DNA of 64,000 nt from a virus (taxonomy: Duplodnaviria > Heunggongvirae > Uroviricota > Caudoviricetes): the IMG/VR virus record IMGVR_UViG_3300021255_003438, positions 13,508 through 77,507 of that record, one strand, 5' to 3'. Below are positions 4,704-60,262 of the stretch, piece after piece (position 1 is the first letter of the stretch; each line of letters starts with the position of its first letter). The translations under genes were made by a program, and so were the position numbers. Under the pieces are notes generated by a model that saw only the letters and a program-made list of their open reading frames with translations, did not search any database and was not told the origin of the DNA.

Positions 4704-5927
4704 TTAACCAATCTGTTTAATCAGATAATTGCACTTCTCAGTATTTCCCAAGGTTTTACCCTTATCATTGGAAAGCTTAACGCAATCATGCCATTCACGG
4801 CTCTCTGTAAGCCTCATTCCAATCAATTTGATTACAATGTTGCTATAAGGAAATTTCTCTTTTGTTTCCATGTTGGCAACATCAGCGCAAAGATGTGTTC
4901 CAATGCCATAGGAGTCCTTCATACGTCCGCCAAGCCACTTGTGCAACTCAACAGCCTTGTCAATGGTAAGGGCGTTAGAATATACAATAGACTTGGTTGA
5001 TGGGTCAATACCAAGAGAACGATATTTCTCAATCATCTTCTCAGTTTCCTCATGCTCGTCACCACTGTCAATACGGATACCATCGAACATCTTAGCCATC
5101 TTTTTAGAGAAATTGGAAAGGAACACCTTTGAGCCAAAACAGTCAGGAAGGAATATGCCCAAGTCGCCGTCATACACGTCAGACCATTTCTTCATAACTT
5201 GATAATTGCACTCAAACACGCCACTTACGCACTCTTCGAATGAGCAAATCTGGTGTGACATCGTTCCTATCACTCCAAGGTCAAATTCCTTTGCAAACCA
5301 CACATTAGATGTTCCAACGAATTTTCCATTGTAATGAGGGGTTTTCTTAATCTCTATATCAGCATTTTTTAATGCGTTAATTACATTACGCTGAACGTCA
5401 AATGAAAAGCGTCTACGTGTTCCCATGTCAGAAAGCAGCAGTCCATTTGTAAATGCTTTAGCTCCTTTTGCATACGCTTCTCTGTATACGTCATCCATGT
5501 CAACCTTTTCAATGTCGCCTTTAAGTATATGCATCAACTCTGAAATGGTAGATAGAATTGGCATTTCCCACATAATTGTGGAATACCACTTACCCTCAAT
5601 CATAATTGAGAGATAGCCATCAAGGTCTTGGAAAATGTGAACCTCACTAGGATTGAAACGGAATCCACGAAGGAAATTGTAGTACCACTCTGGAAGGAAA
5701 TAAATCTTTTTCTTCATAAACTCAATCTCTTCTTCAGTGATAATTACATTGGCCATTCCGTTAATCTGCTCTTGTAGCATCTGACCAAATCCTTTTGGAT
5801 AGCGAGTATAGTTTCTGTCAAAGAACGAATACCTTACCTCTGCACGAGGATAAGTGTGTAAAATGTAATACTGACAAGTGTACGTATAGAGGTCGTTATC
5901 AGTAAAATGAGTTACAATTTGTTTCAT
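4704..5927 (-). CDS. pncB: Nicotinate phosphoribosyltransferase
   Basis: 407 aa. Has 'LLSDMGTRRRFS' and the overall NAPRTase layout and length. Confidence 0.8.
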   Translation of the reverse strand: MKQIVTHFTDNDLYTYTCQYYILHTYPRAEVRYSFFDRNYTRYPKGFGQMLQEQINGMANVIITEEEIEFMKKKIYFLPEWYYNFLRGFRFNPSEVHIFQDLDGYLSIMIEGKWYSTIMWEMPILSTISELMHILKGDIEKVDMDDVYREAYAKGAKAFTNGLLLSDMGTRRRFSFDVQRNVINALKNADIEIKKTPHYNGKFVGTSNVWFAKEFDLGVIGTMSHQICSFEECVSGVFECNYQVMKKWSDVYDGDLGIFLPDCFGSKVFLSNFSKKMAKMFDGIRIDSGDEHEETEKMIEKYRSLGIDPSTKSIVYSNALTIDKAVELHKWLGGRMKDSYGIGTHLCADVANMETKEKFPYSNIVIKLIGMRLTESREWHDCVKLSNDKGKTLGNTEKCNYLIKQIG

Positions 5928-7424: not shown

Positions 7425-8327
7425 CTACTTTGCCTCTACGTTGGTATAGTACCATTTCTCAAACTCGTTAAACTCTTCTTCAGAAAATTCTTTTTTCACA
7501 CGGTCAAGTTCGACATAATCACAATATTTAACTTTTACGATTACCCTATTGCCATTGCCACTGCAAAGAGGTACAACTGGACGTGCGACAATACCCTCTT
7601 CAATCATGGTTGGGTCAGCAGCCTTATCGTACTGAGTCGTAAAACCACTACGAACTTTGCGCTCAATTTCCTCAAGCGTCATTACACCTAGGAATGGAAC
7701 AGTCTCAAGCCCAAGACCCTTACAGAGAGAGTCACGAACATCCTTTGGAGTCCACCAGCCTTGCTGCTGGATGTCGAACACTACGAACCCATTTCCGTTC
7801 TGAATATAACGAGAGCCGCATTTCTGAATGCCAGTTCCGAAATACTCGCCATAGATGTAGATGGGGACTTCCTCAAGACGAACACCATACTGCCCTTCAC
7901 TTGTAGGAACTACAGTTAAAAGGCCAAGATGGTCTGACATATCCCAATACTCAACCTTGTTGGTGCTGCTATCCTTTACAGGGGCAAACCTAGCAGTCTC
8001 TTTTGGGAACATGGCCTTTAACTGAGGCTTGATACGCTCACCTATGGCTTGCAGCATTTCAAACTGACCATGCTGAGAATCAGCCTTATCCGTTTTACCA
8101 CCAACACGAATCTCACCAGTTGATGGGAAGTATGCAATCTTGGAGTTAGTTCCGTCAATCTTGGAATATGCCTCCCAAGGACAATTGAACAGATACTTAG
8201 CCTCTACATTGGAGAAGTTACCAATGATGATTTTGTTCTTGAACTTAAGCCAATCCTTGTTAGGACACTCCTTGCCATCGAAAATGTACCTTTTATATAG
8301 GGTATCAATCTTAGTATATGTATTCAT
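7425..8327 (-). CDS. ATP-dependent RNA ligase-like protein
   Basis: 300 aa. 'EAYSKIDGTNSKIAYF' carries the KxDG(T)N motif I of RNA/DNA ligases. TAG stop at 7425-7427. A host-type promoter lies just upstream at 8348-8379. Confidence 0.6.
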   Translation of the reverse strand: MNTYTKIDTLYKRYIFDGKECPNKDWLKFKNKIIIGNFSNVEAKYLFNCPWEAYSKIDGTNSKIAYFPSTGEIRVGGKTDKADSQHGQFEMLQAIGERIKPQLKAMFPKETARFAPVKDSSTNKVEYWDMSDHLGLLTVVPTSEGQYGVRLEEVPIYIYGEYFGTGIQKCGSRYIQNGNGFVVFDIQQQGWWTPKDVRDSLCKGLGLETVPFLGVMTLEEIERKVRSGFTTQYDKAADPTMIEEGIVARPVVPLCSGNGNRVIVKVKYCDYVELDRVKKEFSEEEFNEFEKWYYTNVEAK

Positions 8328-8922: not shown

Positions 8923-9143
8923 TTATAAAATAGGTTGCTAAATGGTTTTATAACACGTTTCCAATTAAACAATCTGTTAATGAAGCCTTCACTTTTCAAA
9001 TCATCAAACAATTCTTTTGCTTCGTTGAACTTTTGTTTGTATATGATTGTTTGATTTTTCTCTTCAATTAAAGAAGATTCCAAGGACTTAACTTTATCCT
9101 TAAGTCCTTGGTACTCTTCCATTGGAATTTCTATACGAGCCAT
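8919..9143 (-). CDS. Hypothetical small coiled-coil protein
   Basis: 74 aa ORF. Confidence 0.3.
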   Translation of the reverse strand: MARIEIPMEEYQGLKDKVKSLESSLIEEKNQTIIYKQKFNEAKELFDDLKSEGFINRLFNWKRVIKPFSNLFYK

Positions 9144-9742
9144 ACTCTTTCTGAATTTTCAATAAAATTAGTAAAGCTATTTGCTGTGTCTTCGGCTATA
9201 GCTGGGCTATATTCCTTCATCACTGCGAAATTAACATCAGGCATCGCTTTAACGCCATCTTTCACTGAGTCTGCAAGGCAATAGTCATATGCAAGGCCGC
9301 ATACATTAATGACTTGCGGTTTAATATAGTTGCAAAGGTTTACGATGAGGTCATGAGACTTTTCGTTCTTGAACACAGAATATTCCTCATGCTCTTCATT
9401 AAGACCCTTGGTGACTACAACATAATCAGCCTTAATTTCGTTGAGCGCGTCAAGAATCGGCTGATAGATAGCTGCTCCATGAGAGTGCTGAACACAGTGC
9501 ATTGGCCACATGCCGCCATTATCCTTAAACGAACAATGTGTGATAGGATGCCAATCAGCAGTTAGAATGATTTTTTCGTAATCCTTTCCGTGACCTCTGA
9601 TAAAGTCAGCCAAGTTATTCATTGCTCTCTCTGCACCATTTACAGGGAGTGTTCCACCCTCTAAAAAATCATATTGTGGGTCTACTACTAATAAAATTTT
9701 ACTTGTCATATTATTATTTGTTTTATTTTTCTTATAAATCAA
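9131..9742 (-). CDS. pncA: Nicotinamidase/pyrazinamidase (isochorismatase family)
   Basis: 'ILLVVDPQYDFLEGGTLPV', 'ADWHP', and a catalytic Cys context (NVCGLAYDYC). The start may be the internal Met at 9709. Confidence 0.75.
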   Translation of the reverse strand: MIYKKNKTNNNMTSKILLVVDPQYDFLEGGTLPVNGAERAMNNLADFIRGHGKDYEKIILTADWHPITHCSFKDNGGMWPMHCVQHSHGAAIYQPILDALNEIKADYVVVTKGLNEEHEEYSVFKNEKSHDLIVNLCNYIKPQVINVCGLAYDYCLADSVKDGVKAMPDVNFAVMKEYSPAIAEDTANSFTNFIENSERVWLV

Positions 9743-9983: not shown

Positions 9984-11381
9984 TCAAGTTGTTAGGCTCT
10001 TAATTTTATTCTCTACGACCTCAAAGCATTCATCTTTCGTAATATTTGGATTTTCGAAATAGGCATCTTTGACTGCCTCAAGCAGAACTCCAATTATCGG
10101 CCCACCTTTTAATTTAAATTCTGCCATAATGTCTTTTCCATTTATAGGCAGTTTGATGTTGGCCATCTTATCAATGTCCTCAAGCTCTTCTATTCTGTTA
10201 AGAAGGTCGTACACTTGTCGTTTTTTCTTGTCGTATGTGGAATGTAGGTTATTGGCGTTCATTAGGTCAACCACTGTTCCGATGTCGTTTCCGCATAGAT
10301 TCATGAACTTTCTGATTTTCTTATCTGGAGGTACTACGCCATCCGCATAGATTTTGAAAATCCTATGATATTCTATAGCAGTTTGTACGCTTTTAATGAT
10401 ATGGTTTGGAAACTTCATCATCTTCAAGTCTGCTGCTGCAATCTCTCCGCTAAAGTTATCAGGATTAACTGTTTTGTCCTTATCCGTTATAACCTTTCCA
10501 ACGTCATGGAATAATGCTGCCAATCTGCTTTCAAGGTATGGCTGCGTTTCGTCCAACACATTCATGGTATGGTCAAATGTTGTTACCATTGGGTTTTTAG
10601 ACTCATACGCAAAGTTAGTGTCGTATATATCAGGCATTACCTTGTTCAGCACGCCACAGTAATACATTTTCCTTATGCCAACGCTAGGCTTGCTGCATAA
10701 CAGAATTTTTGAAATTTCATCACTGATTCGTTCTTGTGATACGATTTCCAACCTATTTACGTTTTTAATCATACCAAGCCATGTGTCCTTATCAATACCC
10801 CATCCTAGACGAGTTGAGAAACGAATGACACGCATAATCCTCAATGGGTCATCATTGAACGTTATATCTGGGTCTGTTGGTGTTCGTATGATTTTAGCAC
10901 AAAGGTCAGAATATCCAGTGCCGTTAAAATCGCACAGTTTATCTTGGCTTATGTTGTAATATAAAGAATTGATTGTTAAATCTCTTCTTTTTGCGTCTTC
11001 TTCTATAGTTCCAAATACAGTCTCTGGATTCCTATTTTCTTTATGATACTGCTCCTTACGAGTCTGCACACATTCTATTTCAATGTCCTTAAACTCTTCG
11101 TGTTTATATAATTGGAATTTAGCAGTACCATAGGTCTCAAATATTACAGGATTTGTTGACGTAACAAAACATTGATGTTTCATCGTCATGTATGTGGAGA
11201 ATAGAAGTCCTCCATTTGGTATGTCAATTACCAAATCCAAATCCTTAATTGGAAGCCCTAAGATGCTGTCACGGACAGAGCCACCGACAACGTATACATG
11301 ATTGTCGAAGTGGGTGAACTTAATCGTTTCCCTTATTAGATTTAGAAGCTTTTTTATTTTCTCGTCCTTGAATATTTCCAT
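9984..11381 (-). CDS. cca: tRNA nucleotidyltransferase (CCA-adding enzyme) with HD domain
   Basis: 465 aa. 'VVGGSVRDSILGLPIKDLDLV' is the PolyA-polymerase head motif. 'LFHDVGK' is the HD motif. Confidence 0.8.
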   Translation of the reverse strand: MEIFKDEKIKKLLNLIRETIKFTHFDNHVYVVGGSVRDSILGLPIKDLDLVIDIPNGGLLFSTYMTMKHQCFVTSTNPVIFETYGTAKFQLYKHEEFKDIEIECVQTRKEQYHKENRNPETVFGTIEEDAKRRDLTINSLYYNISQDKLCDFNGTGYSDLCAKIIRTPTDPDITFNDDPLRIMRVIRFSTRLGWGIDKDTWLGMIKNVNRLEIVSQERISDEISKILLCSKPSVGIRKMYYCGVLNKVMPDIYDTNFAYESKNPMVTTFDHTMNVLDETQPYLESRLAALFHDVGKVITDKDKTVNPDNFSGEIAAADLKMMKFPNHIIKSVQTAIEYHRIFKIYADGVVPPDKKIRKFMNLCGNDIGTVVDLMNANNLHSTYDKKKRQVYDLLNRIEELEDIDKMANIKLPINGKDIMAEFKLKGGPIIGVLLEAVKDAYFENPNITKDECFEVVENKIKSLTT

Positions 11382-25574: not shown

Positions 25575-26165
25575 TTAATATAAGTTGGAAAAATAAAGGT
25601 AAATTTCATTAATGCGAGTCTTATGATTAAACGCCCATTCATAATTGTCAATGTCATTCACTTTCACCCATTTAATTTCCCCAACTTCTTTACCCTCGTT
25701 GTTTTTCTTGGAAAACTCAAAATCAGTCGTAACCTTGTCTGTAATCCAAGCGCCAAACCTAAACGTAACGTTCTGTCTGTTGGTGGTAACTGGGTCATCC
25801 TCATAGTTGATGAACGTAAGTTGGGATGGGTCAAGTTTAACACCTGTTTCCTCAAAGCACTCACGAACCGCGCATTCCTTTGTGGTCTCGTCAAAGTCAA
25901 GATAACCACAAGGACAATTCCACATGCCTCTGAAATCAGCAGCCTCTTCACCACGTTCAGATGCTAGCACACACCAATCGCCATCAGCATCCTTACAGAA
26001 TACGAAAATGGCTGTTGCCATAGAACGGCTAAACCAACCAATAAATGCTTGGCTTAACACTACTCCAATATCTCCTTCTGAAATGCCCAAACTACTTAAA
26101 TTGGTTGCAAGCAATTTTATTGCTTTTTCCATGTCCAAACAAGGACGATTTGTCATCTTCTCCAT
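25575..26165 (-). CDS. Nudix hydrolase
   Basis: 'GMWNCPCGYLDFDETTKECAVRECFEETGV' fits the Nudix box Gx5Ex7REUxEExGU. Confidence 0.75.
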   Translation of the reverse strand: MEKMTNRPCLDMEKAIKLLATNLSSLGISEGDIGVVLSQAFIGWFSRSMATAIFVFCKDADGDWCVLASERGEEAADFRGMWNCPCGYLDFDETTKECAVRECFEETGVKLDPSQLTFINYEDDPVTTNRQNVTFRFGAWITDKVTTDFEFSKKNNEGKEVGEIKWVKVNDIDNYEWAFNHKTRINEIYLYFSNLY

Positions 26166-27095: not shown

Positions 27096-27298
27096 ATTTT
27101 TCATCAAAAAAGGTATCAAATACACTTATTATTGATATAAATCATTATATAAAAAATGAGCACCCATCGCTGGATGCTCTTGAAAAATCTTATCGCAACA
27201 AGAAAGATTTTAAAAAACAAGGAACAATAATGGTCGGATTCTAACCGACACAAGATTGATTTGCAATCAATTGAGTTAACTTGCTGTATGTTCCTTTG

Positions 27299-35286: not shown

Positions 35287-35398
35287 TCCATATATTTTTT
35301 TTTTATTAAACTTTTTGCAAATATATAAAAAAAAATTGGAAGATACAAATATATCTCCCAACTTTAATTTTGTTTAACAATTTGCCTATATGGATGTG

Positions 35399-35472
35399 TG
35401 AGCGTAGTGGGATTCGAACCCACGAACAACGGTTTTAGAGACCGCCCCAATAGACCACTCTAGCATACGCCC
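35399..35472 (-). tRNA. Candidate suppressor tRNA (anticodon CTA, would read UAG)
   Basis: Acceptor GGGCGTA/TACGCTC. T-arm GTGGG-TTCGAAT-CCCAC. Anticodon stem (G)CGGT/ACCG(T) with loop CTCTAAA (U33, CUA, A37). The D-arm is irregular. Own promoter at 35481-35511. Confidence 0.45.
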
Positions 35473-36177: not shown

Positions 36178-36429
36178 ATGATATATTTTTTAATTTGTTT
36201 GTTATTATTAATGAATTTAAATTACTTCACTTATATTTCCCATTCAAACTAAAATATATCAGGACCACGAATCTTTTTCAGCTACCAGAATTCGTCAGAA
36301 ATCTACCAAAAACTGTTCTTTTTCATAATGTTAATTAATTTAATTTGTTATTAAAAAACGGAAGCTCTTTTTCTAGAATAAATTGATTACAAGTCAAGCC
36401 CTATTAGAAATTGCTGTAAGCTTCCTTAC

Positions 36430-36650: not shown

Positions 36651-37076
36651 GATTGAGCTAATATTGAGTTATATTAAAACTTACGGATATACTTTATCAG
36701 GAATCTGGCTTTCTCTGCTGAAGACTTATTTTTACCCATCCACTCATAGGAACTTCACAGAGTGCTTCACACACCATTAGGTAGCATCGAATGAGATAGT
36801 ATTCCATACGCTAGTGGAACTATATAGACATTGTTACATACCTCAATCTACATTCTTCTTAGTGTGTACCCTTGCGACAAATGTACCCACGCTTGTATAT
36901 CTACGCCTCTATCGTAAGTTTTGTGTTGAAGGGAACTTTTTTTTTCGGTATTCGTTTCAAGCAAATTCCATATAGTCATTGCTGTAAGTTCCCGCTATTG
37001 GTTAAGGAATTGGAAACGGTAGAGCCACACTACGAAACTCTCTACCTACTCATCGTAGCATTATCCAAAACCTTAG

Positions 37077-37686: not shown

Positions 37687-37811
37687 CAGGGACTGATGGA
37701 CTCGAACCACCATTTTTCATTAACAGTTAAAGGCGTAATCTGTTCCGCAGTCGAGACTACGTTAATTCCTTAAATCGTAACAAACCACTCTTACCCTTGA
37801 GCTAAATCCCT
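37687..37811 (-). ncRNA. Long tRNA-like gene (~125 nt) with acceptor + D-arm + T-arm and ~50 extra nt
   Basis: Acceptor AGGGATT/AGTCCCT. D-arm GCTC-AAGGGTAA-GAGT. T-arm GGTGG-TTCGAGT-CCATC. Extra internal hairpins, including AACAG...CTGTT. Confidence 0.35.
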
Positions 37812-38612
37812 ATATAAATATACAAAAGACTGAGAATGTTGTCTTATGTTGATGCCGTCACACAACGGTTGGACGTTGCTCTTCACACGCTGCCTTACAG
37901 CAGACGTAGACACCATGCACGATGATTTTGCGAAAACCACCAAAAAACTTACTAGTTTAAACCTCTCGGTGCAGCATCATAGCTTTCAGTTCTTCGCCAA
38001 GCTCTTGCGGATTCATAGGATGCCTCCTATTAACTCAGGCGAGTACTTTTACACGCTCATTGAATTCCTTGCGAGTCCTCAATGTCTTCATATTGCAGAA
38101 GAATAAGTGCATTTTAGCTGCCTAGTGTCGCGCACTTTTGCTAATATAAAACCGTTTGAATCAACATTTCAAAATTTTATTGCCCATGACCTTGGAAGAC
38201 GAGGCGCGACCCATCGCATTCGTACCTTTTGAGTACGACCCACGAAATCGCCTTCCTACAAAGACTCACCACAAGTCCAATTGCTGTTATGCACTATCAG
38301 CCTTACGGTTCTCACGCCTTTCAGCGCAAGACTAGCGAATAACTAAACCCAACACGCCAACTGGTGATTATTGCATCGAGTTCAGCACAGTAATCTATTG
38401 TGTCACCACTCATCCAAAGACTCTTCGCCCTTGGAAACCTACACCTATGGTGTTACCCACGATGTAGACCGTACTATGCTCTTTTCAGTGAAATGCCTCA
38501 GTCAGCCAAGGCATCTGCAACGCTACTTGGTCAATTTCACGCCACATTTATCCTATCACTAGATTATCCTTAATGGCTACGAAAGCTAGCCAAAACCCCT
38601 TGCGAGATTCGT
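37800..38612 (-). ncRNA. GC-richer ~0.8 kb region with no ORFs: candidate large structured RNA or degenerate tRNA-like array
   Basis: No ORF over 90 codons on either strand. GC visibly higher than its flanks. Long-range complementarity (for example GGAAGACGAGGCG...CGCCTTCC, TTCGTAC...GTACGA). Embedded between tRNA genes on the transcribed strand. Confidence 0.3.
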
Positions 38613-38866: not shown

Positions 38867-38875
38867 AAATGTAGT

Positions 38876-38954
38876 TGCGGAAGTGGGATTTGCACCCACG
38901 AACCTTACGGACTAGCTTATGAAACTAGCGAGATTGACTACTCCTCCATTCCGC
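38876..38954 (-). tRNA. tRNA (anticodon CAT) with an extended variable region
   Basis: Acceptor GCGGAAT/(C)TTCCGC. Anticodon stem CTAGT/GCTAG with loop TTCATAA. T-arm GTGGG-TGCAAAT-CCCAC. Confidence 0.5.
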
Positions 38955-39067
38955 TATGTTAAAAATAAGGAAACGTTTTTGTTTTTTCAAGAAACATTTA
39001 CATACTTAAGCTAGTTGCTGTGCGTTTCCACTATTCTATGAATTTTATTATCTTTTTTCCAACTGCG

Positions 39068-39690: not shown

Positions 39691-40391
39691 GTTAAGTGGA
39701 GCTAGAGTGAAATAAATCTCATTAAACTCCGTACTTTTCCACATTTGTAAATATTTATATTAAAATCAATATTACTATGTCAAAAAAATATAACTTTAAT
39801 CGTAAACTAGGTACAGTTAAATGTGATAATTGCGGCAAAGAATTCCAAAAGCCCCAATCAGAAATTAACCGTAACGCTAAACTCAATAGAAATAACTACT
39901 GCTGTAGAGAATGTTCTGCTGAAGGGGTTAGAAAAACTAGATTGAATTTACCTTATAAACCAGCATCTAAAAAAATGTTAGAACATTTAAAAGATATTTG
40001 TGGAAATCATCGTGATGATTACACTCCATTCAGATATTCTTTAAGATGCGCTAAAAGACGTTTTAAAGACGTTAATGTAACTTTGGAAGACTTAAAAGAA
40101 ATATGGGAAAAACAAAATGGTGTTTGCCCATACACTGGTTTTAAACTAATTCTTCCTGAAAACTCTAATGTGAATAAAATCGATTTTTTTCATAGAGCAT
40201 CTTTAGATAGAATAGATTCTTCACTTGGTTACATTAAAGGTAACATTCAATTTATTTCTACACCTATTAACTTGATGAAACAAACACAAAGTGATGCAAG
40301 CGTTAAACAATTCCTAAAAGAAATTTCAAGTTATACATCAAAACTTTTATAAGTGTCTGATTTTCAAGTAGTTAAGTGGAGCTAGAGTGAA
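39691..40391 (+). mobile_element. Free-standing HNH homing endonuclease insertion flanked by a 21-bp direct repeat derived from a tRNA 3' end
   Basis: Identical gttaagtggagctagagtgaa at 39691-39711 and 40371-40391. The right copy continues into an intact T-arm (GAGTG-TTCGATT-CACTC). The only sizeable plus-strand gene in the window. Confidence 0.55.
39777..40352 (+). CDS. HNH homing endonuclease
   Basis: 191 aa. 'FFHRASLDRIDSSLGYIKGNIQFIS...N' matches the HNH_3 motif. N-terminal Cys pairs (CDNCGK...CCREC). Confidence 0.65.
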   Translation: MSKKYNFNRKLGTVKCDNCGKEFQKPQSEINRNAKLNRNNYCCRECSAEGVRKTRLNLPYKPASKKMLEHLKDICGNHRDDYTPFRYSLRCAKRRFKDVNVTLEDLKEIWEKQNGVCPYTGFKLILPENSNVNKIDFFHRASLDRIDSSLGYIKGNIQFISTPINLMKQTQSDASVKQFLKEISSYTSKLL

Positions 40392-40762
40392 TCGAACACT
40401 CGTCCATACTACCATCCCATAAGAGATTATACAAGCTTTAAAATTGGAAAGTTGACATTGCTGTCCTCACCGCCACCTCATTTTGCGAAAACGAGGAAAA
40501 CTAGGGGGATGACTAGAGTCATCAGTCCACCATTCGGTTTTAAGAAACCGACAAAAAGTTGCTAGGATGTTCTGTTCCTAAGAGCCTAGCCTCTCGGCTT
40601 ACATTACGCAGCTATTGCGTACTCGTAAGCAGGAGTATCAATATACTCGCCGTTTATTTTTTTCTTGCTATTTCTAGTGTATGCCCACTGCTTGTCTCTT
40701 ACCAAATGCATAGCTGTCTATACCATTGTAGCCCCATTGTGTCAAAGAACTCTTTCTTGTTG

Positions 40763-41052: not shown

Positions 41053-41123
41053 ATTTTTATTTTTAAAAAACGGAAACGATTCAATTTAAAGTTGAACTAT
41101 TAGAAATTGCTGTATGTTTCCTT

Positions 41124-41191
41124 GGTGCTTGCGATAGGATTTGAACCTACTGTACCCCACTATAAGATGGCGTGTGTCTGCCAATATATCA
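41124..41191 (-). ncRNA. tRNA-like element with encoded CCA. Internal structure unresolved.
   Basis: T-arm GTAGG-TTCAAAT-CCTAT. 3' end ...CGCAAGC-A-CCA. 5' GCTTGAG pairs 6/7. No clean anticodon stem. Confidence 0.3.
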
Positions 41192-41390
41192 CCCCTCAAG
41201 CATGTTCGCACTCTGTACTCTTTCAAGCCATCGAGCACTTGTCTTGCATTATCGTAGTTAAGACCAATATACGGCATTCTTGACCTAAAGTATGCTTACG
41301 ATGGAGTTAAATGTGTGTCCTCTGTTTTAAGTCCGCGCAATTTCCTCATAGCTCCCAAGAGACTTATGCGCTTGACTGATACTCAAGTAG

Positions 41391-42395: not shown

Positions 42396-43009
42396 GATTC
42401 TTTTCTTTTTCTAAAAGATGTCTTCAAATCAAAACCGTGAGCTAATATTTTACCTTCGTTGGTTTGTGTTTTCACACCCTCTGGAGAACCAAATAAATCA
42501 CAGAAACAGTCATGTTTAAACTCATTTATTTTTTTCTCATCATATTTGTTTTCATATAAAAAAGTAACGATGTTATTCATTACCTTTTCCAAATCACTAA
42601 TGAGGTGGTCTTCAATTCCGTTTCCAATCAAATCCCAAGGTCTAATTTCATAGCCTATGGAAGTGTTATTCCTATTTGTTAAATAACTTATGTCATAGTA
42701 GCCACCTTGAAACTCTATCCTATACACCTTTCTAATACCTTCCTCTTGGTATTTTTTCTTATTGTTTAAAGAACTTTCGCTTTTGTAGTAGTAAAAGCCC
42801 AAAGGAGAGAGACATTTCAATTTCCTTCCACCTTTACCTACACGGCTAACAACTCTTTCATCACGAACAATTTCTTCTCCTTTTTGAAAGGTAATGGTGT
42901 TGCTATATATAAATTGAGCATTAATTGCGGGGTTTTCTACTTTCTGTACAATAACCTCACATTTACTGAACAATATCTTCCTTTTTTCTCTTACCTTATT
43001 GTCTTTCAT
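42392..43009 (-). CDS. Hypothetical protein, dispersed paralog of 24057..24701
   Basis: 205 aa with a conserved C-terminus HGFDLKTSFRKRKES. Confidence 0.45.
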   Translation of the reverse strand: MKDNKVREKRKILFSKCEVIVQKVENPAINAQFIYSNTITFQKGEEIVRDERVVSRVGKGGRKLKCLSPLGFYYYKSESSLNNKKKYQEEGIRKVYRIEFQGGYYDISYLTNRNNTSIGYEIRPWDLIGNGIEDHLISDLEKVMNNIVTFLYENKYDEKKINEFKHDCFCDLFGSPEGVKTQTNEGKILAHGFDLKTSFRKRKES

Positions 43010-44460: not shown

Positions 44461-45306
44461 TTATTGTATGTCCTTCTTTCTATATGGTAAACCGTAGTAT
44501 TTACACCATTTTCTTACAGCGTTGTCTGATACCCCATAAGTCCTTCCTATTGCACTGAAATTGCTCTCTTGCAGCAGCATACTAAGTTCTTCCTTACTTG
44601 GTCTCTCAACTTTTCTCTGAAGTTTCTTATTACATTCATCACATCTAGTACTATGCGAATCTATATGTTTACCACAATTAATGCACACGCCATAATATCT
44701 AACTCTTGGATGTGGCATTATACTGTTTGTTTTTAATTCACCATTGACCATCTTCTTATAACATTCATCGCAAAGTCCTGTCTGAGTCTTGTTTATTTCC
44801 TTTCCACAGCATTTACAATAATGTTTCTTATCTACACCATTGTGATGATTATTAGCGCCACAATAGTTATCTGTTTGTGAATGGCAATTGGGGCATAGTA
44901 TTTGTAAATTTTCTAGCCTATTGTCTGTATTATCCCCATTTATATGGTGTAGTTGTAAACTTATTTGTTCACCATTCCAATGAATTATACCGCATTTCTC
45001 GCATTTATATTCTTTTAGTCCACTAGAAAATAGTTTCCATTTAAGTCTATCAGCCTTAATATATGAGTTAGTAGTAAGGTAATCTTCTACTTTTTTCTCG
45101 TTGTGTTTAACACCACTATTGGACTTTCCTTTCATTGTGAAATGACTAGTATCAAGCTCTAACTCATTTATGTATTTTTTGACATATCTGTAGTTACCGC
45201 CTTGTGGCTTCCATCCAATCTTTCTACATACATCAGCGTATGTGTGGCTCTCTTCAACGAACCTTTTAAAATCCTCGTTACTAATTCTTTTCATATGCAA
45301 AATCAT
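44461..45306 (-). CDS. HNH homing endonuclease-like protein with a C-terminal HTH
   Basis: 281 aa. 'LQLHHINGDNTDNRLENLQILCPNCH' is the HNH motif. Several CxxC pairs. Confidence 0.6.
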   Translation of the reverse strand: MILHMKRISNEDFKRFVEESHTYADVCRKIGWKPQGGNYRYVKKYINELELDTSHFTMKGKSNSGVKHNEKKVEDYLTTNSYIKADRLKWKLFSSGLKEYKCEKCGIIHWNGEQISLQLHHINGDNTDNRLENLQILCPNCHSQTDNYCGANNHHNGVDKKHYCKCCGKEINKTQTGLCDECYKKMVNGELKTNSIMPHPRVRYYGVCINCGKHIDSHSTRCDECNKKLQRKVERPSKEELSMLLQESNFSAIGRTYGVSDNAVRKWCKYYGLPYRKKDIQ

Positions 45307-47043: not shown

Positions 47044-47844
47044 TTAAATATTTTGCAAATTGTTTAATATATGTTCTTTCCAATAATTTCTTCTAGTGCT
47101 GTTTTTATTTTTTGACTTAAATGTGTCTAACTGACTATCACAATTAGGACATATCATCCGCAAATTTTCTCTTTTGTTGTTAGAAGCATCACCATCAATA
47201 TGGTCTAGTACAAATACTAACGGTTTACCATTATGTTCTGGTTTACCTCCACATATTGGGCATATACCACCTTGTTCCTTTAAGAATTCTTTTTTAAAAG
47301 CTTTTGGTGTATAATTTCCTCTACAGTATTTATTGTTATTTTCTAGAAAATCTTTATAAGATTCTCTATGCCTATGTTCTGCAACACATTTTTCAGAACA
47401 ATATTTAGCATCTTTTACTGTAGTTTCAAAATATTTTCCACAAACAACACATTTTTTTGTATATTTAATTAATTTCTTTTCTTTTTTAATGTGTTCTTTT
47501 TTCGTTTTCTTTAACTTACTAGCAATACCATCATAAACAGATTTATCCCTATGTTCATTGTTATACTTCGCAGCACAAGAACGGCAACAAAATTCCTTAC
47601 CCCATTTATTAGTAATTTCTTTTCCGCATTGCTTACAATATTTAATTATTTTTTTCTTTTTATAAGTATCTAAATCAAATCCAACTGACGTTGCAATTTC
47701 TTTCAAATATTCAGAACCTTGTTTATTATCGCTTATTCCGAAATATTCATGTGCTTGATTTTTGCTAGTAAAACTATCAAATTTATCAAAGACCTCTTTC
47801 TTTTTTTCTTCTGTACTAATGTCAATAATCTTTCTTTTCCTCAT
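47044..47844 (-). CDS. HNH homing endonuclease-like protein
   Basis: 266 aa. 'VLDHIDGDASNNKRENLRMICPNCDSQ' is the HNH motif. Many CxxC pairs. Confidence 0.6.
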   Translation of the reverse strand: MRKRKIIDISTEEKKKEVFDKFDSFTSKNQAHEYFGISDNKQGSEYLKEIATSVGFDLDTYKKKKIIKYCKQCGKEITNKWGKEFCCRSCAAKYNNEHRDKSVYDGIASKLKKTKKEHIKKEKKLIKYTKKCVVCGKYFETTVKDAKYCSEKCVAEHRHRESYKDFLENNNKYCRGNYTPKAFKKEFLKEQGGICPICGGKPEHNGKPLVFVLDHIDGDASNNKRENLRMICPNCDSQLDTFKSKNKNSTRRNYWKEHILNNLQNI

Positions 47845-50138: not shown

Positions 50139-50220
50139 ATTGTTAAACTAGGTCTGCACTCCCCTCGCATGCTACGTGTCGGAGTTACTTGCATTGCTGC
50201 ATTTGTTGTTACCTAGTTTG

Positions 50221-51965: not shown

Positions 51966-52040
51966 TTGCTCGTCTGGGACTCAAACCCAGGACCCTATCT
52001 TTCGTAGAGATATGCTCTAATTCAACTGAGCTAACGAGCA
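51966..52040 (-). tRNA. tRNA-Arg (anticodon ACG)
   Basis: Acceptor TGCTCGT/ACGAGCA. D-arm GCTC-AGTTGAATTA-GAGC. Anticodon stem TATCT/AGATA with loop CTACGAA. T-arm CTGGG-TTTGAGT-CCCAG. Confidence 0.65.
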
Positions 52041-52459
52041 ATAAAAAGGAAACGTAGGTTTTCGAGCTTGCTTATTCTGCTATTACTATGAGGGTGGTAT
52101 TTCAAGATTGACTCCACACATCCTAGCGAATATGCTTCAACGTCTCCCACCTATCCTACACTCATATGCCATTGCTACTGTTATTCACAAGAGTAACACG
52201 TTATGCAGCCCTAGCCTTATCTTTTGGAATTGTAACGAGTTAAGATTTCATATGCTGTACGTTTCCGATATATTGTGTCAATTGCGACAAAAGAAAAAAG
52301 GAACGACCAATTTTATGTCTTGGCTCGACATTCGCCCCGAAGAGCATAGGTAAGTGCCTCGCAATGATGATTTAACGCTTCTCTTACCTTCGTCTAGTCT
52401 GAATTAAAAATGTGTTCTTATAAATTTATTTTAATCAAACTGCTGTACGTTCCTACTTG

Positions 52460-52533
52460 TACATCCGCTGGGACTCGAACCCAGAACCTACGGCTTAGAA
52501 GGCCGTTGCTCTAATCCATTGAGCTACGGATGC
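52460..52533 (-). tRNA. tRNA-Arg (anticodon TCT)
   Basis: Acceptor GCATCCG/CGGATGT. D-arm GCTC-AATGGATTA-GAGC. Anticodon stem ACGGC/GCCGT with loop CTTCTAA. T-arm CTGGG-TTCGAGT-CCCAG. Confidence 0.7.
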
Positions 52534-53922: not shown

Positions 53923-54299
53923 AACAAAAAATGATATTTTATTATTTTAACTAATAATAAATATCATTTTAAGCTAAAAATAACTGAATGTGTTGTTACA
54001 CCAAAGACAACGCTTGTACTTTACGTCTCACGATTTACGTTTACATTCGACTAAGAATCCAGCAGCGGCTTTAAAGGTTCTCCAACTTGACTTCACGAGC
54101 CTCATTCGGTCTTATATTTCAGATTCTCAGACTTCGACCTCTCGTCTCTCGCCAATTAGGGATTTGCAACTCCCACGTTATTTGGATGCACCTAGGGTTT
54201 TTATATGAGGTGTAAACCCATAAAACATTCTACCTCACCACTTACTGAGTACTGTCACTCCTTAGAAGATGGACACTACCAATCCCACTTTTTCAGTTA

Positions 54300-54340
54300 T
54301 CTATGTAGGGTAGAAGGGATTCGAACCCCCCACAAACCTT
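54300..54340 (-). ncRNA. Orphan tRNA 3' half downstream of the 54343..54420 tRNA
   Basis: GGGGG-TTCGAAT-CCCTT then CTACCCT-A. No partner 5' strand. Confidence 0.35.
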
Positions 54341-54420: not shown

Positions 54421-54547
54421 ATTATTTAGACAGATTGAATTTTTGACTCCATTTATGTATTGCTTTATCACTAACCTCAAAATATTTTCCAGTTTTTGTT
54501 TTGTTCCAATTGCGATTAGCGGTTTTGAACAAATATTGCTGTTTGTT

Positions 54548-54621
54548 TCCTTACAAGTGGACTCGGAGGGAATTGAACCCACGACCTTCAGATTATGAGT
54601 CTGCTGCTCTAACCAACTGAG
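54548..54621 (-). tRNA. tRNA-Met/Ile2-type (anticodon CAT)
   Basis: Acceptor GGACTTG/CGAGTCC. D-arm GCTC-AGTTGGTTA-GAGC. Anticodon stem (G)CAGA/TCTG(A) with loop CTCATAA. Confidence 0.6.
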
Positions 54622-54957: not shown

Positions 54958-55231
54958 AATTTCTTGAGCAGTGTAGGAGATTCGAACTCCCTCCTTGACC
55001 TTGGCAAGGTTATATGCTACCATTAACACCAACACTGCAAAGTCAGTTTTTATAACCGTAAAACTGAAAAACTTCCTCCACCTACGATGAGGCAATAGTT
55101 TGAATCCCTTCAGGGACTACTGACGTTACGTTGAGCCTCAAATCTCTTTTGATAGTCTTTTTTAACGTGCAGATAATCTAGCAAGTAGTATGTACACGAT
55201 ATTTTAAGGAAACGTTTGTTGTTTATTTTTT

Positions 55232-55320
55232 AGTGCTCTAACCAACTGAGCTACCACGCTATGTTATTATGATTTAGTAGCGTGGACAGGATTCGAACCT
55301 GTGACCCCTAGCTTGAAATG
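55232..55320 (-). ncRNA. Permuted/split tRNA-like unit A: 3' half then 17-nt linker then 5' half
   Basis: On the sense strand: ...GGGTC-ACAGG-TTCGAAT-CCTGT-CCACGCT-A, then CTAAATCATAATAACAT, then AGCGTGG-TA-GCTC-AGTTGGTTA-GAGC-A, then an A-rich tail. The acceptor strands are perfectly complementary (7/7). Confidence 0.45.
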
Positions 55321-55358
55321 CTTTTTAAACGATGTACTTTGCTGTACGTTTCCACTTG

Positions 55359-55666: not shown

Positions 55667-56689
55667 TTACTGAGCAGTAGTTGGCTTAACGATTACCAAA
55701 CGGTTAAGCTTAACGCCCTCACCTACGGACTTGTTAACTCTTACACCACGAGCCTTAAGGTACTCTGCAACAGCATCTGCTCTGCGCTGTGAAAGCTCCT
55801 TGTTATAAGCTTCACTACCCTCTGGTGATGCATATCCGAACACGTCAACGATACCATCTTGTCCGATTGTGTTAAGAACTGCCTTTGCATCACTTGTAAG
55901 CTCTGCGCTATTGAAAGCGAACTCAACCATCCACTCGTTAGTCTTTTCAACAGCACGGAAGATAGGCTTCTCAACAACAACTTGCGTTACAACCGTATCA
56001 ACTGGATGTTGTCTTTGACACTCATCAAGTGCGCCACGAAGTCTATTAATCTCATCATTCATAGCACCAATATCCCATGTCTTGAAGTGATGTGTACCGT
56101 TGCTAGTCTTGAAGTGGTATACATAACTTACGTTAAGTGCCAACTGTGAACCACGCTTATCAAACTGAATATCGCCAAACTTGTGGAGATTCCAATAGAT
56201 TGCTGGAGTCAAGACCAACGAATGAGCTTTTTTCTTACCAATGTTCCAAGCAAAGTCAAGACCTGTCTTAGAACTTAGATAGTTGTTACTTGTGTTCCAT
56301 GTATGAAGCCAACCGATACCTGCAATTGCACTAACTTCAAACTTCCTAGGAGTACCTTGGTATCCACCAAATACATTTGACAAATTGAGTGCGCCATTAA
56401 GACCTACGTTTGTTGCCTTTACTGATGTCTTGATGTCAGTGAAATGGTTGTCATTCAAAAATGCCAAACCTTCTACTTGGAAACCGAATGCTGGAGTGAA
56501 ATCCTTAGTGAACTTAAGACCAACATTTGTGTTGAGAGGGAAAACTGAGTTGAAGTCAAGCGGAGTTGAAACGCCACCAGTGATACCGATGCCAATGTTA
56601 TCAAGTGCTGAACTGTTCTCAGTTGCAATCTGTGCCTTTGCACCAACTACGGCACTAAAAAGTGCCAACATTAAAATTAATTTTCTCAT
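55667..56689 (-). CDS. OmpA-family outer membrane protein (signal peptide + beta-barrel + OmpA_C peptidoglycan-binding domain)
   Basis: 340 aa. 'MRKLILMLALFSAVVGAKAQ'. C-terminal 'FAFNSAELTSDAKAVL...GYASPEGSEAYNKELSQRRADAVAEYL'. Confidence 0.7.
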   Translation of the reverse strand: MRKLILMLALFSAVVGAKAQIATENSSALDNIGIGITGGVSTPLDFNSVFPLNTNVGLKFTKDFTPAFGFQVEGLAFLNDNHFTDIKTSVKATNVGLNGALNLSNVFGGYQGTPRKFEVSAIAGIGWLHTWNTSNNYLSSKTGLDFAWNIGKKKAHSLVLTPAIYWNLHKFGDIQFDKRGSQLALNVSYVYHFKTSNGTHHFKTWDIGAMNDEINRLRGALDECQRQHPVDTVVTQVVVEKPIFRAVEKTNEWMVEFAFNSAELTSDAKAVLNTIGQDGIVDVFGYASPEGSEAYNKELSQRRADAVAEYLKARGVRVNKSVGEGVKLNRLVIVKPTTAQ

Positions 56690-56768: not shown

Positions 56769-57074
56769 TTAGAATGGCAATTTATCAATTTTTTTTAATT
56801 TCCATTTGTACGTATACGTTCTAACCCCATTGTTCTTAACCATTTTATATGTTGGAGTGCTCACATAAAAACTTTTTCTTGTGAACGCTTTTATTATCAA
56901 CGTAAATGCATCAGAACAATAAGGATGACTAGATGTTTCTATCGTAACCTCTATTTCATCACCGACATTTTTGATGTCATATTCATCAATGCTGTCTTGA
57001 ATTTCCTTAATGAAGAAATAGCAATACCTTGGAAAATCAATATACTCTTTTGTTATTTTCTTATATTCACCCAT
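56769..57074 (-). CDS. Hypothetical protein
   Basis: 101 aa ORF. Confidence 0.4.
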   Translation of the reverse strand: MGEYKKITKEYIDFPRYCYFFIKEIQDSIDEYDIKNVGDEIEVTIETSSHPYCSDAFTLIIKAFTRKSFYVSTPTYKMVKNNGVRTYTYKWKLKKIDKLPF

Positions 57075-57100
57075 AACATTACCTTAAAAAACGGATACTT

Positions 57101-57165
57101 TTGTTTAATATACCAATACCCACGAATGGGTGCTTAAACCATTTGTTTAGGTTTAGCTTGGATTC
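57101..57165 (-). ncRNA. Permuted/split tRNA-like unit C (3' half then 8-nt linker then 5' half)
   Basis: On the sense strand: CTTGG-TTCGAAT-CCAAG-CTAAACC-T, then AAACAAAT, then GGTTTAA-GC-ACCC-ATTCGTG-GGT. Acceptor strands pair 6/7. Confidence 0.4.
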
Positions 57166-57359
57166 GAACCAAGAAATTGTAACAAAATTACATTGCTGTA
57201 AGTATCCTTGCGTTAATTATATCAACTATCACGTTTGGACTGCTACTAGAGACCTTACCCCCATCCATACCTCTCTAGGAAGATAACCTAGCACATTCTT
57301 TCAATTTCCATGACCCCACAGTTTATTGGACTTACGTGGCACGATTATTTGATATATAG

Positions 57360-57432: not shown

Positions 57433-57460
57433 ATTTTTCGGAAACATTTTTTATTTTTTA

Positions 57461-57530
57461 CATTGCTCTACCAACTGAGCTACAACGAGCTATTGCCCAT
57501 TGAAGAGACTCGAACTCTTGACCTACGGAT
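57461..57530 (-). ncRNA. Permuted/split tRNA-like unit B (3' half then 5-nt linker then 5' half)
   Basis: On the sense strand: AAGAG-TTCGAGT-CTCTT-CAATGGG-C, then AATAG, then CTCGTTG-TA-GCTC-AGTTGGTA-GAGC-A, then an A-rich tail. Acceptor strands pair 7/7 with two G-U. Confidence 0.4.
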
Positions 57531-57732
57531 TACAAATCATAATAAAAACGTTTGCATTGCTGTATGTTTCCTTTTATGTTTTATGAAACTGTTTTGGCTC
57601 TATGCTTTCTGTTCTATCACGTTCCAATACGTAATCCCTAAGAAGGGTTAGGCTTAACGAATTATTCTTTTACATTTCATTCGCCCTCTTGCTACGATAG
57701 CAAGACTGTGATTACTCACCGTTCAGTCTCAT

Positions 57733-58090: not shown

Positions 58091-58242
58091 ATGTTTAAAA
58101 CTAGGTGTTGCAACATTAGAAATGGGCTTACAATATTCGACATTCGGCTCAACCGCTCTAGATTTCGGTATCATAGCCTCCTCCTCGTAGCCTCTTACTG
58201 CCATTCTAAACCTAGTTTTATGAAAACGGAATCTATAAACTT

Positions 58243-58313
58243 TCGGTAGGTTGAGACTCGAACTCAAATCTCTTAGTAAAAGCCAAGGCTCTAACCCATT
58301 GAGCTACCCATCG
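58243..58313 (-). ncRNA. tRNA-like gene (canonical D- and T-arms, unresolved anticodon stem)
   Basis: D-arm GCTC-AATGGGTTA-GAGC. T-arm TTGAG-TTCGAGT-CTCAA. Acceptor pairs 6/7. Confidence 0.4.
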
Positions 58314-58340
58314 CGTTACCTTATGCTGTTAGATTCCTTT

Positions 58341-60174: not shown

Positions 60175-60262
60175 AAGTAAAGGGAACATTTTTAACCGTA
60201 TTCTTAAAACCCAAATTTAATTACTTGTTAATTCAATAATACTTGCTGTAAGTTCCCACTTG

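Follow-up and report, generated by a model that had tools for sequence, protein, structure and literature searches.

A short motif that recurs among the tRNA genes of what looks like a huge phage genome is very probably the 5' strand of a terminal helix which, together with a conserved loop, closes the members of a family of modular small RNAs. The DNA in question, hereafter the window, is a stretch of 64,000 nucleotides (nt) from a virus of the class Caudoviricetes (IMG/VR record IMGVR_UViG_3300021255_003438, positions 13,508 to 77,507). An initial annotation had described the motif, at 36401-36425 and several other places, as a conserved trailer abutting the 3' ends of many tRNAs. Below, the closing stem and its loop are called the handle, the sequence they enclose the cargo, and the whole an element. 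The explanation that we favour, to which we assign as a whole a probability of roughly 0.6, is that the elements are Y-RNA-like modular phage small RNAs with a common handle. The family appears to be undescribed: the handle is absent from Rfam 15, and no description of this RNA family was found in the literature that we searched.

The terminal stem and its loop

The 5' part of the handle has the form RGRAAC-N followed by NN-CAGCA-N, and it is matched by an N-GTTYCY strand 27-200 nt downstream, with which it can form a terminal stem of 6-7 base pairs (bp). With at most one mismatch allowed, GGAACNTACAGCAA occurs seven times in the window, on the minus strand only, against 0.07 matches expected from shuffled sequences, and none of 100 shuffles reached seven. 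A search with the 5' motif only returned 15 sites in the window; 12 of these have a 6-nt complement no more than 225 nt downstream, and none has one upstream. In all 12 complete copies the downstream complement is perfect over at least 6 nt within this distance; an A-rich tract usually lies directly 5' of the complementary strand and a T-run often lies 3' of it. No full motif unit was found in the 27 kb of protein-coding sequence, and the two loose matches in the coding part, at 689 (+) and 15565 (-), are both devoid of a partner strand.

Nine copies had been listed in the initial annotation, whereas the window contains 12 complete elements, all on the minus (tRNA) strand between 27.2 and 60.3 kb (Table 1). 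The copies at 27281-27294, 36411-36425, 36979-36993, 41107-41121, 52440-52454, 55339-55353, 57557-57571 and 60243-60257 are indeed present; the one reported at 57181-57197 exists as well, but about 10 nt away, at 57193-57207. Four copies had been overlooked (58323-58337, 52252-52266, 39015-39029 with the loop CACAGCAA, and 54536-54550), as had the downstream partner strand of every complete copy. An extended sequence common to two copies, TACAGCAATTTCTAATAG, does recur in 36401-36425 and 41097-41121. Among the three copies that had been considered degenerate, those at 38286 and 40438 do not belong to the family: the first falls within the 5' part of a GOLLD-like RNA and is not conserved in relatives, and the second lies inside the transfer-messenger RNA (tmRNA) gene. 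The third, at 50185, may be part of a diverged family member with a 9-bp bracket of its own. The copy at 54536-54550 consists of the 5' handle only, with no closing strand within 250 nt; because its intact orthologue in the related locus L138 closes after 127 nt, this copy has probably decayed or been interrupted.

In the minimum free energy folds of ten window elements the handle stem always forms the closure, and the TACAGCAA segment is for the most part single-stranded (z-scores from -0.8 to -3.9); folds computed in Python for ten elements, including two longer ones, are likewise closed by the handle stem. Relatives were collected by scanning IMG/VR with GGAAACNTACAGCAA and with the same pattern followed by GTTTCC 95-125 nt downstream; these scans and that of cellular genomes used narrow exact patterns. 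About 80 non-redundant elements of the same architecture were obtained from 38 IMG/VR loci, which are mostly large-phage contigs, several of them 200-412 kb long. Several of the element sets were first chosen on complementarity, and a comparison of downstream with upstream complements, which addresses this choice and ignores phylogeny, gave a clear difference: among 244 distinct viral sites picked on the 5' motif alone, a complement is present downstream in 119 and upstream in 11. At 81 of these 119 sites the variable stem position 7 forms a Watson-Crick pair, compared to the expectation of 25%.

Stem variants are kept as pairs within orthologue groups. GGATACT/AGTATCC is found in five orthologues, and AGGAACG/CGTTCCT is kept in eight of nine, the ninth having AGGAGCG, which forms a G-U pair; other paired variants in relatives are GGAAGCT/AGCTTCC, GGAATCT/AGATTCC, GGGTACA/TGTACCC and GAAAACA/TGTTTTC. 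G-U pairs also occur within the stems GGAAACG/TGTTTCC and GGAATCT/GGATTCC, and such pairs speak for RNA because they can form only in RNA of this strand, although the asymmetry between G-U pairs and A-C mismatches is contaminated too heavily by chance six-of-seven matches to be a decisive test of the strand. Elements that were recovered by cargo homology rather than by the motif carry the loop NN-CAGCA-N (TGCAGCAA, CACAGCAA, AGCAGCAA, TCCAGCAC), so that CAGCA is the invariant loop core. The strands of elements and tRNAs agree in 965 of 965 comparisons in related loci. Because the motif is always paired with a co-varying strand 27-200 nt downstream, we consider it to be one side of an RNA helix, within which a structured RNA of its own is held.

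The family is present in many phage contigs of IMG/VR. The same narrow pattern, run against 185,579 species genomes of bacteria and archaea, gave 28 matches, against about 34 that we estimate to arise by chance, and all of them lie in coding-like sequence except on a 2.2-kb phage-like contig (L156). The handle was not found in the tRNA region of the Prevotella megaphage Lak-A1. Four IMG/VR contigs of 30-60 kb (L080, L122, L127 and L133) share a conserved stretch of about 140 nt, GGAAACC-TACAGCAA...GGTTTCC, with no tRNAs nearby; it holds an apparent ribosome-binding site and an ATG and was left out of the family as probably unrelated.

The enclosed RNAs and their precedents

The cargo differs among elements and comprises YrlA-like domains, hairpins resembling anticodon loops, a whole tRNA-like cloverleaf and a copy of the L1 stalk of 23S rRNA. 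The Rfam model of YrlA (RF02553) matches two window elements over its full length, m55 with 39.8 bits and m57b with 34.1 bits (E values of about 1e-5 to 1e-3); these scores, and a further one of 24.3 bits, do not reach the gathering score of 69. In the same two elements the permuted units of the initial annotation proved to be real, a T arm and a 3' acceptor strand being placed before the complementary 5' acceptor strand (AGCGTGG/CCACGCT in m55, CTCGTTG/CAATGGG in m57b) and a D arm. This order of T arm, acceptor-like stem and D arm was detected with cmscan in these two elements and not in those with small, L1-stalk or class A cargos. RNAalifold, applied to ten orthologues, found the handle stem, both the T and the D arm, and an acceptor-like stem in which five pairs show compensatory changes, and there is covariation in the T stem, too. 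Closure of the acceptor stems speaks against aminoacylation.

The L1-stalk copy in m52b is near-perfect: all conserved nucleotides are kept, and it is 77-83% identical to enterobacterial 23S rRNA over 71 nt. A distant BLAST search with 52040-52460 matched only genuine 23S rRNA in contaminated records. We know of no earlier report of such a free-standing viral rRNA mimic. The known binding sites of ribosomal protein uL1 are the L1 stalk of 23S rRNA and its mRNA mimic in the L11 operon; m52b resembles them in keeping every conserved nucleotide of helices 76-78, but it is predicted to be a free-standing phage RNA within a handle, part of neither a ribosome nor the leader of a ribosomal protein operon. 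By analogy, the copy could bind uL1 or tRNA elbows.

Among the remaining cargos, the cloverleaf of m58 is non-permuted and is reported by ARAGORN as 'tRNA-???'; such calls are also made in the related loci L037, L121, L125 and L136. Several small cargos are stalks with 7-nt CU-NNN-AA loops on 4-5 bp stems and resemble anticodon arms. Hairpins with a 7-nt YU...R loop are present in 45 of the 80 cargos, compared to 10.5 expected, most of them being T arms. The class A cargo of m52a has nine members, with orthologues in L037, L090, L094, L124, L131, L132, L137 and L138. It is built around the core ...GAAGCGTTAA...GCGAGGCAC..., the loop is always TACAGCAG, the stem is AGGAACG/CGTTCCT apart from the single G-U exception, and no match to it exists in Rfam.

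Table 1. Positions of handle elements and of other features in the window
Feature	Positions	Strand	Stem or bracket	Loop	Cargo, flanks and remarks
m27	27220..27295	-	AGGAACA/TGTTCCT	TACAGCAA	anticodon-like hairpin and T-arm-like hairpin GTCGG-TTAGAAT-CCGAC; begins 2-3 nt after tRNA-Met; T-run at end
m36a (motif at 36401-36425)	36360..36425	-	GGAAGCT/AGCTTCC	TACAGCAA	stalk TTTCTA/TAGAAA with anticodon-like hairpin tip TTGA-CTTGTAA-TCAA; followed by GTTTTTT, then open reading frame (ORF); orthologue in L077
m36b	36931..36993	-	GGGAACT/AGTTCCC	TACAGCAA	small hairpin; A9 tract 5' of 3' strand; z -2.6
m39	38969..39029	-	GGAAACG/CGTTTCC	CACAGCAA (variant)	small cargo; end lies 13 nt before tRNA-Met 38874-38955; L092 orthologue 97% identical, loop TACAGCAA
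m41	41072..41121	-	GGAAAC/GTTTCC (6 bp)	TACAGCAA	anticodon-like hairpin TTCAA-CTTTAAA-TTGAA; starts 2 nt after tRNA-like 3' end; followed by GTTTTTT, then ORF
m52b	52048..52266	-	GGAAACG/CGTTTCC	TACAGCAT	L1-stalk cargo; end lies 7 nt before tRNA-Arg(acg); orthologue in L132
m52a	52299..52454	-	AGGAACG/CGTTCCT	TACAGCAG	class A cargo; begins 4 nt after tRNA-Arg(tct); T-run at end
5' handle only	54536..54550	-	GGAAACA	AACAGCAA	6 nt after tRNA-Met 54557
m55	55208..55353	-	GGAAACG/CGTTTCC	TACAGCAA	YrlA-like: T arm, acceptor-like stem closed by 17-nt linker, D arm; begins 4 nt after tRNA-Gly(tcc); z -3.9
m57a	57093..57207	-	GGATACT/AGTATCC	TACAGCAA	hairpin, T arm, acceptor-like stem-loop, further hairpin; followed by GTTTTTT and conserved 101-aa ORF; z -3.2
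m57b	57440..57571	-	GGAAACA/TGTTTCC	TACAGCAA	YrlA-like: anticodon-like hairpin, T arm, acceptor stem closed by 6-nt loop, D arm; ends 8 nt before tRNA-Pro
m58	58228..58337	-	GGAATCT/AGATTCC	AACAGCAT	whole cloverleaf; orthologues in L136, L131, L138
m60	60182..60257	-	GGGAAC/GTTCCC (6 bp)	TACAGCAA	hairpin; begins 5 nt after tRNA-Glu(ttc), ends 8 nt before tRNA-Gln; z -3.1
Putative diverged relative, 75 nt	50145..50219	-	AAACTAGGT/ACCTAGTTT (9 bp)		GCAGCAA in 5' loop; exactly occupies gap between tRNA-Phe and tRNA-Thr
23S rRNA L1-stalk copy (helices 76-78)	52087-52166	-			large-subunit rRNA model positions 2131-2210; 57-63 bits, gathering score 50 exceeded
tRNA-like cloverleaf in m58	58243-58313	-			6-nt anticodon loop, anticodon 'tt' (ARAGORN)
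Nicotinate phosphoribosyltransferase (NAPRTase)	4704-5927	-			
RNA ligase	7425-8327	-			PF09414
Isochorismatase/nicotinamidase-like	9131-9742	-			
CCA-adding enzyme	9984-11381	-			with HD domain
NUDIX hydrolase	25575-26165	-			
Suppressor tRNA	35398-35472	-			anticodon CUA
GOLLD-like large RNA	37827-38256	-			RF02032; 73 bits, E 3e-17, gathering score 150 not reached
tmRNA	40376-40735	-			tag peptide GEYIDTPAYEYAIAA
HNH-like ORFs	44461-45306 and 47044-47844				
OmpA-like protein	55667-56689	-			340 aa, beta-barrel N-terminus; inside tRNA array; conserved in 17 related loci
101-aa protein	56769-57074	-			weak DUF3127 match; inside tRNA array; conserved in 13 related loci

Y RNAs are the closest precedent for the handle elements. 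In these RNAs the terminal stem binds Ro60, and a distal module, which is tRNA-like in YrlA, engages another factor (PMC4201824, PMC12135203). YrlA is the bacterial and phage Y RNA represented by RF02553 (PMC4201824), and phage examples accompanied by Ro60 have been described (PMC12135203); a motif GNCGAAN0-1G (CGAA) near its 5' end is thought to contact Ro60/Rsr (PMC4201824, PMC12135203). As in YrlA, the 5' and 3' ends of the elements pair into a terminal stem beside an internal loop, and at the other end there is a tRNA-like domain in which a T arm is followed by a closed acceptor-like stem-loop and then by a D arm. The shared design would be a protein-binding stem, as proposed here for the handle, joined to an effector module, and some YrlA RNAs are likewise encoded by phages. 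YrlA is characterized by the binding of Ro60 and the tethering of an effector such as PNPase. There are differences as well. The CGAA contact motif is replaced by RGRAAC-N-NN-CAGCA, the 5' parts GGAAACGTACAGCAAAGTACATCGTTT and GGAAACATACAGCAATGCAAACGTTTT containing no GNCGAA; a genome carries a dozen paralogues, where YrlA has one to three; the elements are embedded in a tRNA array; and the same handle also carries the L1 stalk and small hairpins. With the Ro60-contact motif absent, no Ro60/TROVE gene found in the 64-kb window and scores below the gathering threshold, the elements are not canonical YrlA RNAs.

The order of the tRNA-like parts also recalls the permuted tRNA genes of Cyanidioschyzon merolae and the permuted two-piece tmRNA genes (tmRNA_permuted, RF04321), where the 3' half precedes the 5' half. 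Similarly to these, the T arm and 3' acceptor strand lie upstream of the 5' acceptor strand and D arm, and leader and trailer pair. However, in contrast to C. merolae, joining the flanks of the m55 class leaves a 3-bp CUA/UAG remnant and no anticodon loop, and the acceptor stem of the m57b class is closed by 4-6 nt, so that no chargeable 3' end is expected; a bulge-helix-bulge is absent, and RNAs with no likeness to tRNA are found between the same flanks, too. Nor does a canonical tRNA (RF00005) with the handle as its acceptor stem describe the elements, the gathering score of 29 not being reached even by the best match, a weak full-length one in m27 (27225-27295, 25.3 bits, E 0.35). The idea that the handle provides a D stem, in which UA-CAGC-AA would correspond to tRNA positions 8-15, was considered and rejected: the cargos contain no GCUG partner, no array tRNA has UACAGC, and none of 325 ARAGORN tRNAs in related loci has it at positions 8-13. 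We keep it only as a weak idea on evolutionary origin, since m27 gives a 25-bit tRNA match.

Element ends, mode of action and rival explanations

The ends of the elements are related to the neighbouring tRNAs in part of the family. Twenty-two of the 80 elements lie within 12 nt of an upstream tRNA 3' end, at distances of 2-10 nt, and 58 are not directly after a tRNA; 34 end 4-14 nt before the next tRNA, and 35 have a T-run after the 3' strand. A TAnnTTTG box, which we take to be the Bacteroidota -7 promoter element, is located 10-38 nt upstream of 14-15 elements (background 4%). Neither a tRNA nor a promoter box lies just upstream of 44. In the window, 5-6 of 13 copies are near a tRNA 3' end (within about 5 nt). 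The abutment of tRNAs claimed in the initial annotation stands for five copies, for which ARAGORN calls a tRNA that ends 2-6 nt before the copy (Met 27298, Arg-tct 52459, Met 54557, Gly-tcc 55358 and Glu-ttc 60262), and the remaining copies do not abut such a tRNA. The sixth adjacent copy, at 41121, does follow a tRNA-like 3' end, one that ARAGORN does not call; in 41121-41390 (-), a T arm and an acceptor 3' strand ending at 41123 are preceded by a long region.

Under the mechanism that we propose, the RNAs would be co-transcribed with the array tRNAs, their 5' ends being formed where RNase Z cuts the preceding tRNA or where transcription starts at a promoter of the Bacteroidota type, and their 3' ends where RNase P cuts the following tRNA or where transcription stops at the T-run. 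Processing would leave the handle as a clamp with short overhangs. Given that the tRNA genes lack CCA and that the phage has a CCA-adding enzyme, cuts by RNase Z and RNase P would release the element with both strands of the handle intact. The spacing, read in the light of established tRNA processing, makes this route of biogenesis fairly probable. Small RNAs are freed by RNase P and RNase Z from the tRNA-containing transcripts of MALAT1/mascRNA and of the tRNA-miRNA units of gammaherpesviruses. There, too, a RNA that is not a tRNA lies a few nucleotides from tRNA structures, and tRNA-processing enzymes could define its ends; however, those units, which are eukaryotic or viral and nuclear, share no common closing helix or loop, and for the elements the processing is deduced from spacing.

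The released handle might then serve as a sequence-specific dock for one common protein that stabilizes the RNAs, tethers them to one partner, or both. The short end-clamp, the invariant and mostly single-stranded pentanucleotide, the A-rich opposite strand and the exchangeable distal module are the features that suggest a protein-binding handle on a modular RNA. The cargos could imitate tRNA bodies, anticodon arms and the L1 stalk without being chargeable, and so bind, titrate or recruit factors that normally bind tRNAs or ribosomes, such as tRNA-targeting defence nucleases of the host, tRNA-processing or tRNA-modification enzymes, and uL1. This assignment of the handle as a docking site and of the cargos as decoys, which draws on the analogy with Y RNAs, is tentative.

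Several observations weigh against the Y-RNA-like interpretation. Stem position 7 is unpaired in about one quarter of the elements. Downstream of 22 of the 80 elements both a T-run and a called tRNA are missing, so that the formation of their 3' ends is unexplained, and the RNA ends, abundance and expression of the elements are predicted from sequence. No candidate for a handle-binding protein was noticed among the window ORFs scanned. A Pfam search revealed no TROVE/Ro60 domain in the window ORFs of at least 300 aa or in 26 smaller ones, the window being 64 kb of a genome of about 201 kb, so that a Ro60 gene may lie elsewhere in it, and the YrlA/Ro60 motif GNCGAAN0-1G (PMC4201824) is absent from the elements. 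The scan of bacteria and archaea relied on one narrow pattern, so host-encoded relatives could escape it. Because many small cargos show no recognizable mimicry, a decoy role may apply only to a subset of the elements. Finally, ORFs start 15-35 nt after m36a, m41 and m57a, and the position of these three elements directly upstream of ORFs also fits a cis-regulatory role. With regard to possible partner proteins, the conserved ORFs embedded in the array yielded only OmpA-like, weak DUF3127 and zinc-ribbon matches, and neither the 101-aa ORF nor the RNA ligase matched any sequence in the PDB.

The strongest of the alternatives, which we nevertheless regard as unlikely, is that the handle is a processing signal: a dedicated host or phage endoribonuclease would recognize the stem and the CAGCA loop and excise the cargo, the ends of which could be circularized, in the manner of Cas6 acting on CRISPR repeats, RNase III cutting rRNA processing stems or the bulge-helix-bulge system of archaea. 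Such a signal would account for a handle that brackets every cargo, including the complete cloverleaf and the permuted tRNA-like domains, and for ends at the 44 of 80 elements on the 5' side and 22 of 80 on the 3' side that require another end-forming route; moreover, the phage encodes an RNA ligase. However, a 7-bp stem is too short for RNase III, bulge-helix-bulge geometry is absent, and the search for a candidate nuclease yielded none. With PF09414, the ligase falls into an Rnl2-like family that seals nicks, and ligases of this type are ill suited to joining two overhangs into a loop. Furthermore, the 2-14 nt spacing to tRNAs already explains many ends via RNase Z and RNase P, and a handle that is removed gives little reason for stems that co-vary in each orthologue group.

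It is considerably less probable that the stem and T-run form a conditional terminator or attenuator which, depending on the cargo, controls read-through into ORFs and tRNAs. This possibility draws on the T-run right after the 3' strand in 35 of 80 elements, on the elements m36a, m41 and m57a that precede ORF starts, and on the conservation of the 101-aa ORF together with an m57a-type element in relatives. Over half of the elements, however, have no T-run, many lie between two tRNAs with no ORF nearby, an AU-rich 7-bp stem around an insert of 27-200 nt is a poor intrinsic terminator, and no anti-terminator pairing is conserved across the classes.

The view that had been taken in the initial annotation, of a tRNA 3' trailer signal for a processing nuclease or of a homing-endonuclease target, is now very improbable. 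What survives of it is that the motif is a specific, strand-bound feature of the array, with several copies where tRNA 3' processing must occur: 5-6 window copies start 2-6 nt after a tRNA discriminator, and tRNAs without an encoded CCA must have their 3' ends cut endonucleolytically. As a trailer or cleavage motif it is largely ruled out by its distribution, since 58 of 80 elements are found elsewhere than behind a tRNA, a co-varying partner at a distance is a constant feature of the motif, and the motif also lies behind promoter-like boxes. Theta ribozymes, related to those of hepatitis delta virus (HDV), are placed at exactly this position in gut phages; they lie beside tRNAs in gut Caudoviricetes that mostly infect Bacteroidota, often with suppressor tRNAs (PMC10879173). 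The handle shares with them the location a few nucleotides from the 3' ends of CCA-less tRNA genes, and the window has a tRNA(CUA). Yet there is no compact nested double pseudoknot made up of P1, P1.1, P2, P3 and P4, in which P1 is cleaved at its 5' end; the partner of the 5' strand comes last in the element, at a distance of 27-200 nt; nothing on the same strand is complementary to the segment that follows the 5' strand; and most elements are not after a tRNA. A search of the window against Rfam with E values up to 5 gave no match to an HDV-type family, and no known ribozyme family or other Rfam family matches at the handle within this limit. A homing-endonuclease target is unsupported, both because the two HNH-like ORFs lie more than 3 kb from every copy and because a target site of a protein would keep its sequence instead of co-varying with a distant partner.

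At the level of DNA, the inverted repeats could be recombination sites, like the attC sites of integrons, which act as folded single strands, or could form the ends of a small mobile cassette by which cargos are shuffled within and between phage tRNA arrays, an explanation as improbable as the preceding one. It would be in line with identical short inverted repeats around very different cargos, with the interrupted appearance of the copy at 54536-54550 and with a faint likeness, presumably, of the AAC...GTT ends to attC core sites. The attC consensus has RYYYAAC/GTTRRRY cores at cassette boundaries and a tyrosine-recombinase integrase nearby, whereas RGRAAC/GTTYCY encloses the cargo, which lies within the repeats and not between elements. 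In addition, the coupling to the transcribed strand is strict (965/965), the conserved loop is on one side only, stems contain G-U pairs that are valid only in RNA of this strand, and no integrase or transposase is encoded among the scanned window ORFs. The recombination hotspot suggested in the initial annotation finds no evidence: orthologous elements are syntenic in related phages, each with its own stably kept stem variant. Judged by sequence, the elements are thus neither theta/HDV-like ribozymes, nor C. merolae-type permuted tRNA genes, nor attC-like sites.

Four narrower ideas were set aside. Pairing of tRNA leaders with trailers fails because, on the transcribed strand, the complement TTGCTGTA does not precede the tRNAs. 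A loop that pairs with the neighbouring GOLLD-like RNA (CUGCUGUAAGG, 37896-37906) is contradicted by L077, which has CUAUCGUAAGGUAG there, so that the local hairpin is kept and the complementarity to the handle is lost. A phage promoter is excluded in that a transcript starting inside the motif would lose the co-varying 5' strand. A CRISPR repeat mimic has no support from Rfam CRISPR-DR families, which match no handle at E up to 5; the only such match in the window, at 42728-42756 (+), is weak and away from the handles.

The phage, its tRNA array and possible roles

All genes of the window are on the minus strand, and the G+C content is about 35%. Between 27 and 61 kb there are 32 tRNAs called by ARAGORN, several further Rfam tRNA matches and the tmRNA; CCA is not encoded in the tRNA genes of the array. 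A suppressor tRNA(CUA) is present, which suggests that TAG is reassigned in part of the genome. The GOLLD-like RNA sits among the tRNA genes and is 84-96% identical in L077 and L092. Two other stretches are of note: a 125-nt Rfam tRNA match at 37687-37811 (-), possibly with an intron, and T-arm/acceptor-like sequence at 54100-54340 (-), downstream of tRNA-Leu 54342. In the window, the GGATACT-class element is immediately followed by the 101-aa ORF. A protein identical to one of the window is present on a 201-kb metagenome contig of the European Nucleotide Archive, and no near relative was found among the deposited phage genomes of INPHARED.

Pfam scans identified a CCA-adding enzyme, NAPRTase, TelA, a radical-SAM protein, the RNA ligase and a NUDIX protein among the window gene products. 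The genes for the RNA ligase and the CCA-adding enzyme, separated by 1.7 kb, could constitute a tRNA-repair module. NAPRTase, the nicotinamidase-like protein, the NUDIX hydrolase and a nicotinamide adenine dinucleotide (NAD) synthase encoded just beyond the window (L001 1-838) look like an NAD-salvage set, possibly one that counters NAD-depleting defences. The tRNA array, the RNA ligase, the CCA-adding enzyme and the NAD-salvage genes together suggest that the handle elements may have a role in counter-defence or in translation takeover.

More far-reaching, and rather doubtful at present, is the proposal that across a clade of huge phages, which probably infect Bacteroidota, a universal 7-bp clamp with a CAGCA loop acts as a 'display scaffold' bound by a dedicated protein and displays a dozen different non-functional mimics of translation RNAs, among them closed tRNA bodies, bare anticodon loops and the L1 stalk. 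If true, this scaffold would constitute a new, Ro60-independent class of viral ribonucleoproteins, and its RNAs a decoy or recruitment kit that is directed against defences targeting tRNAs or ribosomes, or that serves translation takeover.

Irrespective of such roles, the 'spacers' of phage tRNA arrays are usually deemed meaningless, and here about a dozen of them belong to one widely conserved family of structured RNAs. The combination RGRAAC-N-NN-CAGCA ... N-GTTYCY provides a simple search key for the annotation of metagenomic phage genomes. If the handle is indeed a dock and the cargos are mimics, huge phages would use RNA to bind or mislead factors that bind tRNAs and ribosomes. This would bear on tRNA-targeting anti-phage defences and on phage tRNAs as a means of counter-defence, and would extend the Y-RNA idea beyond Ro60.

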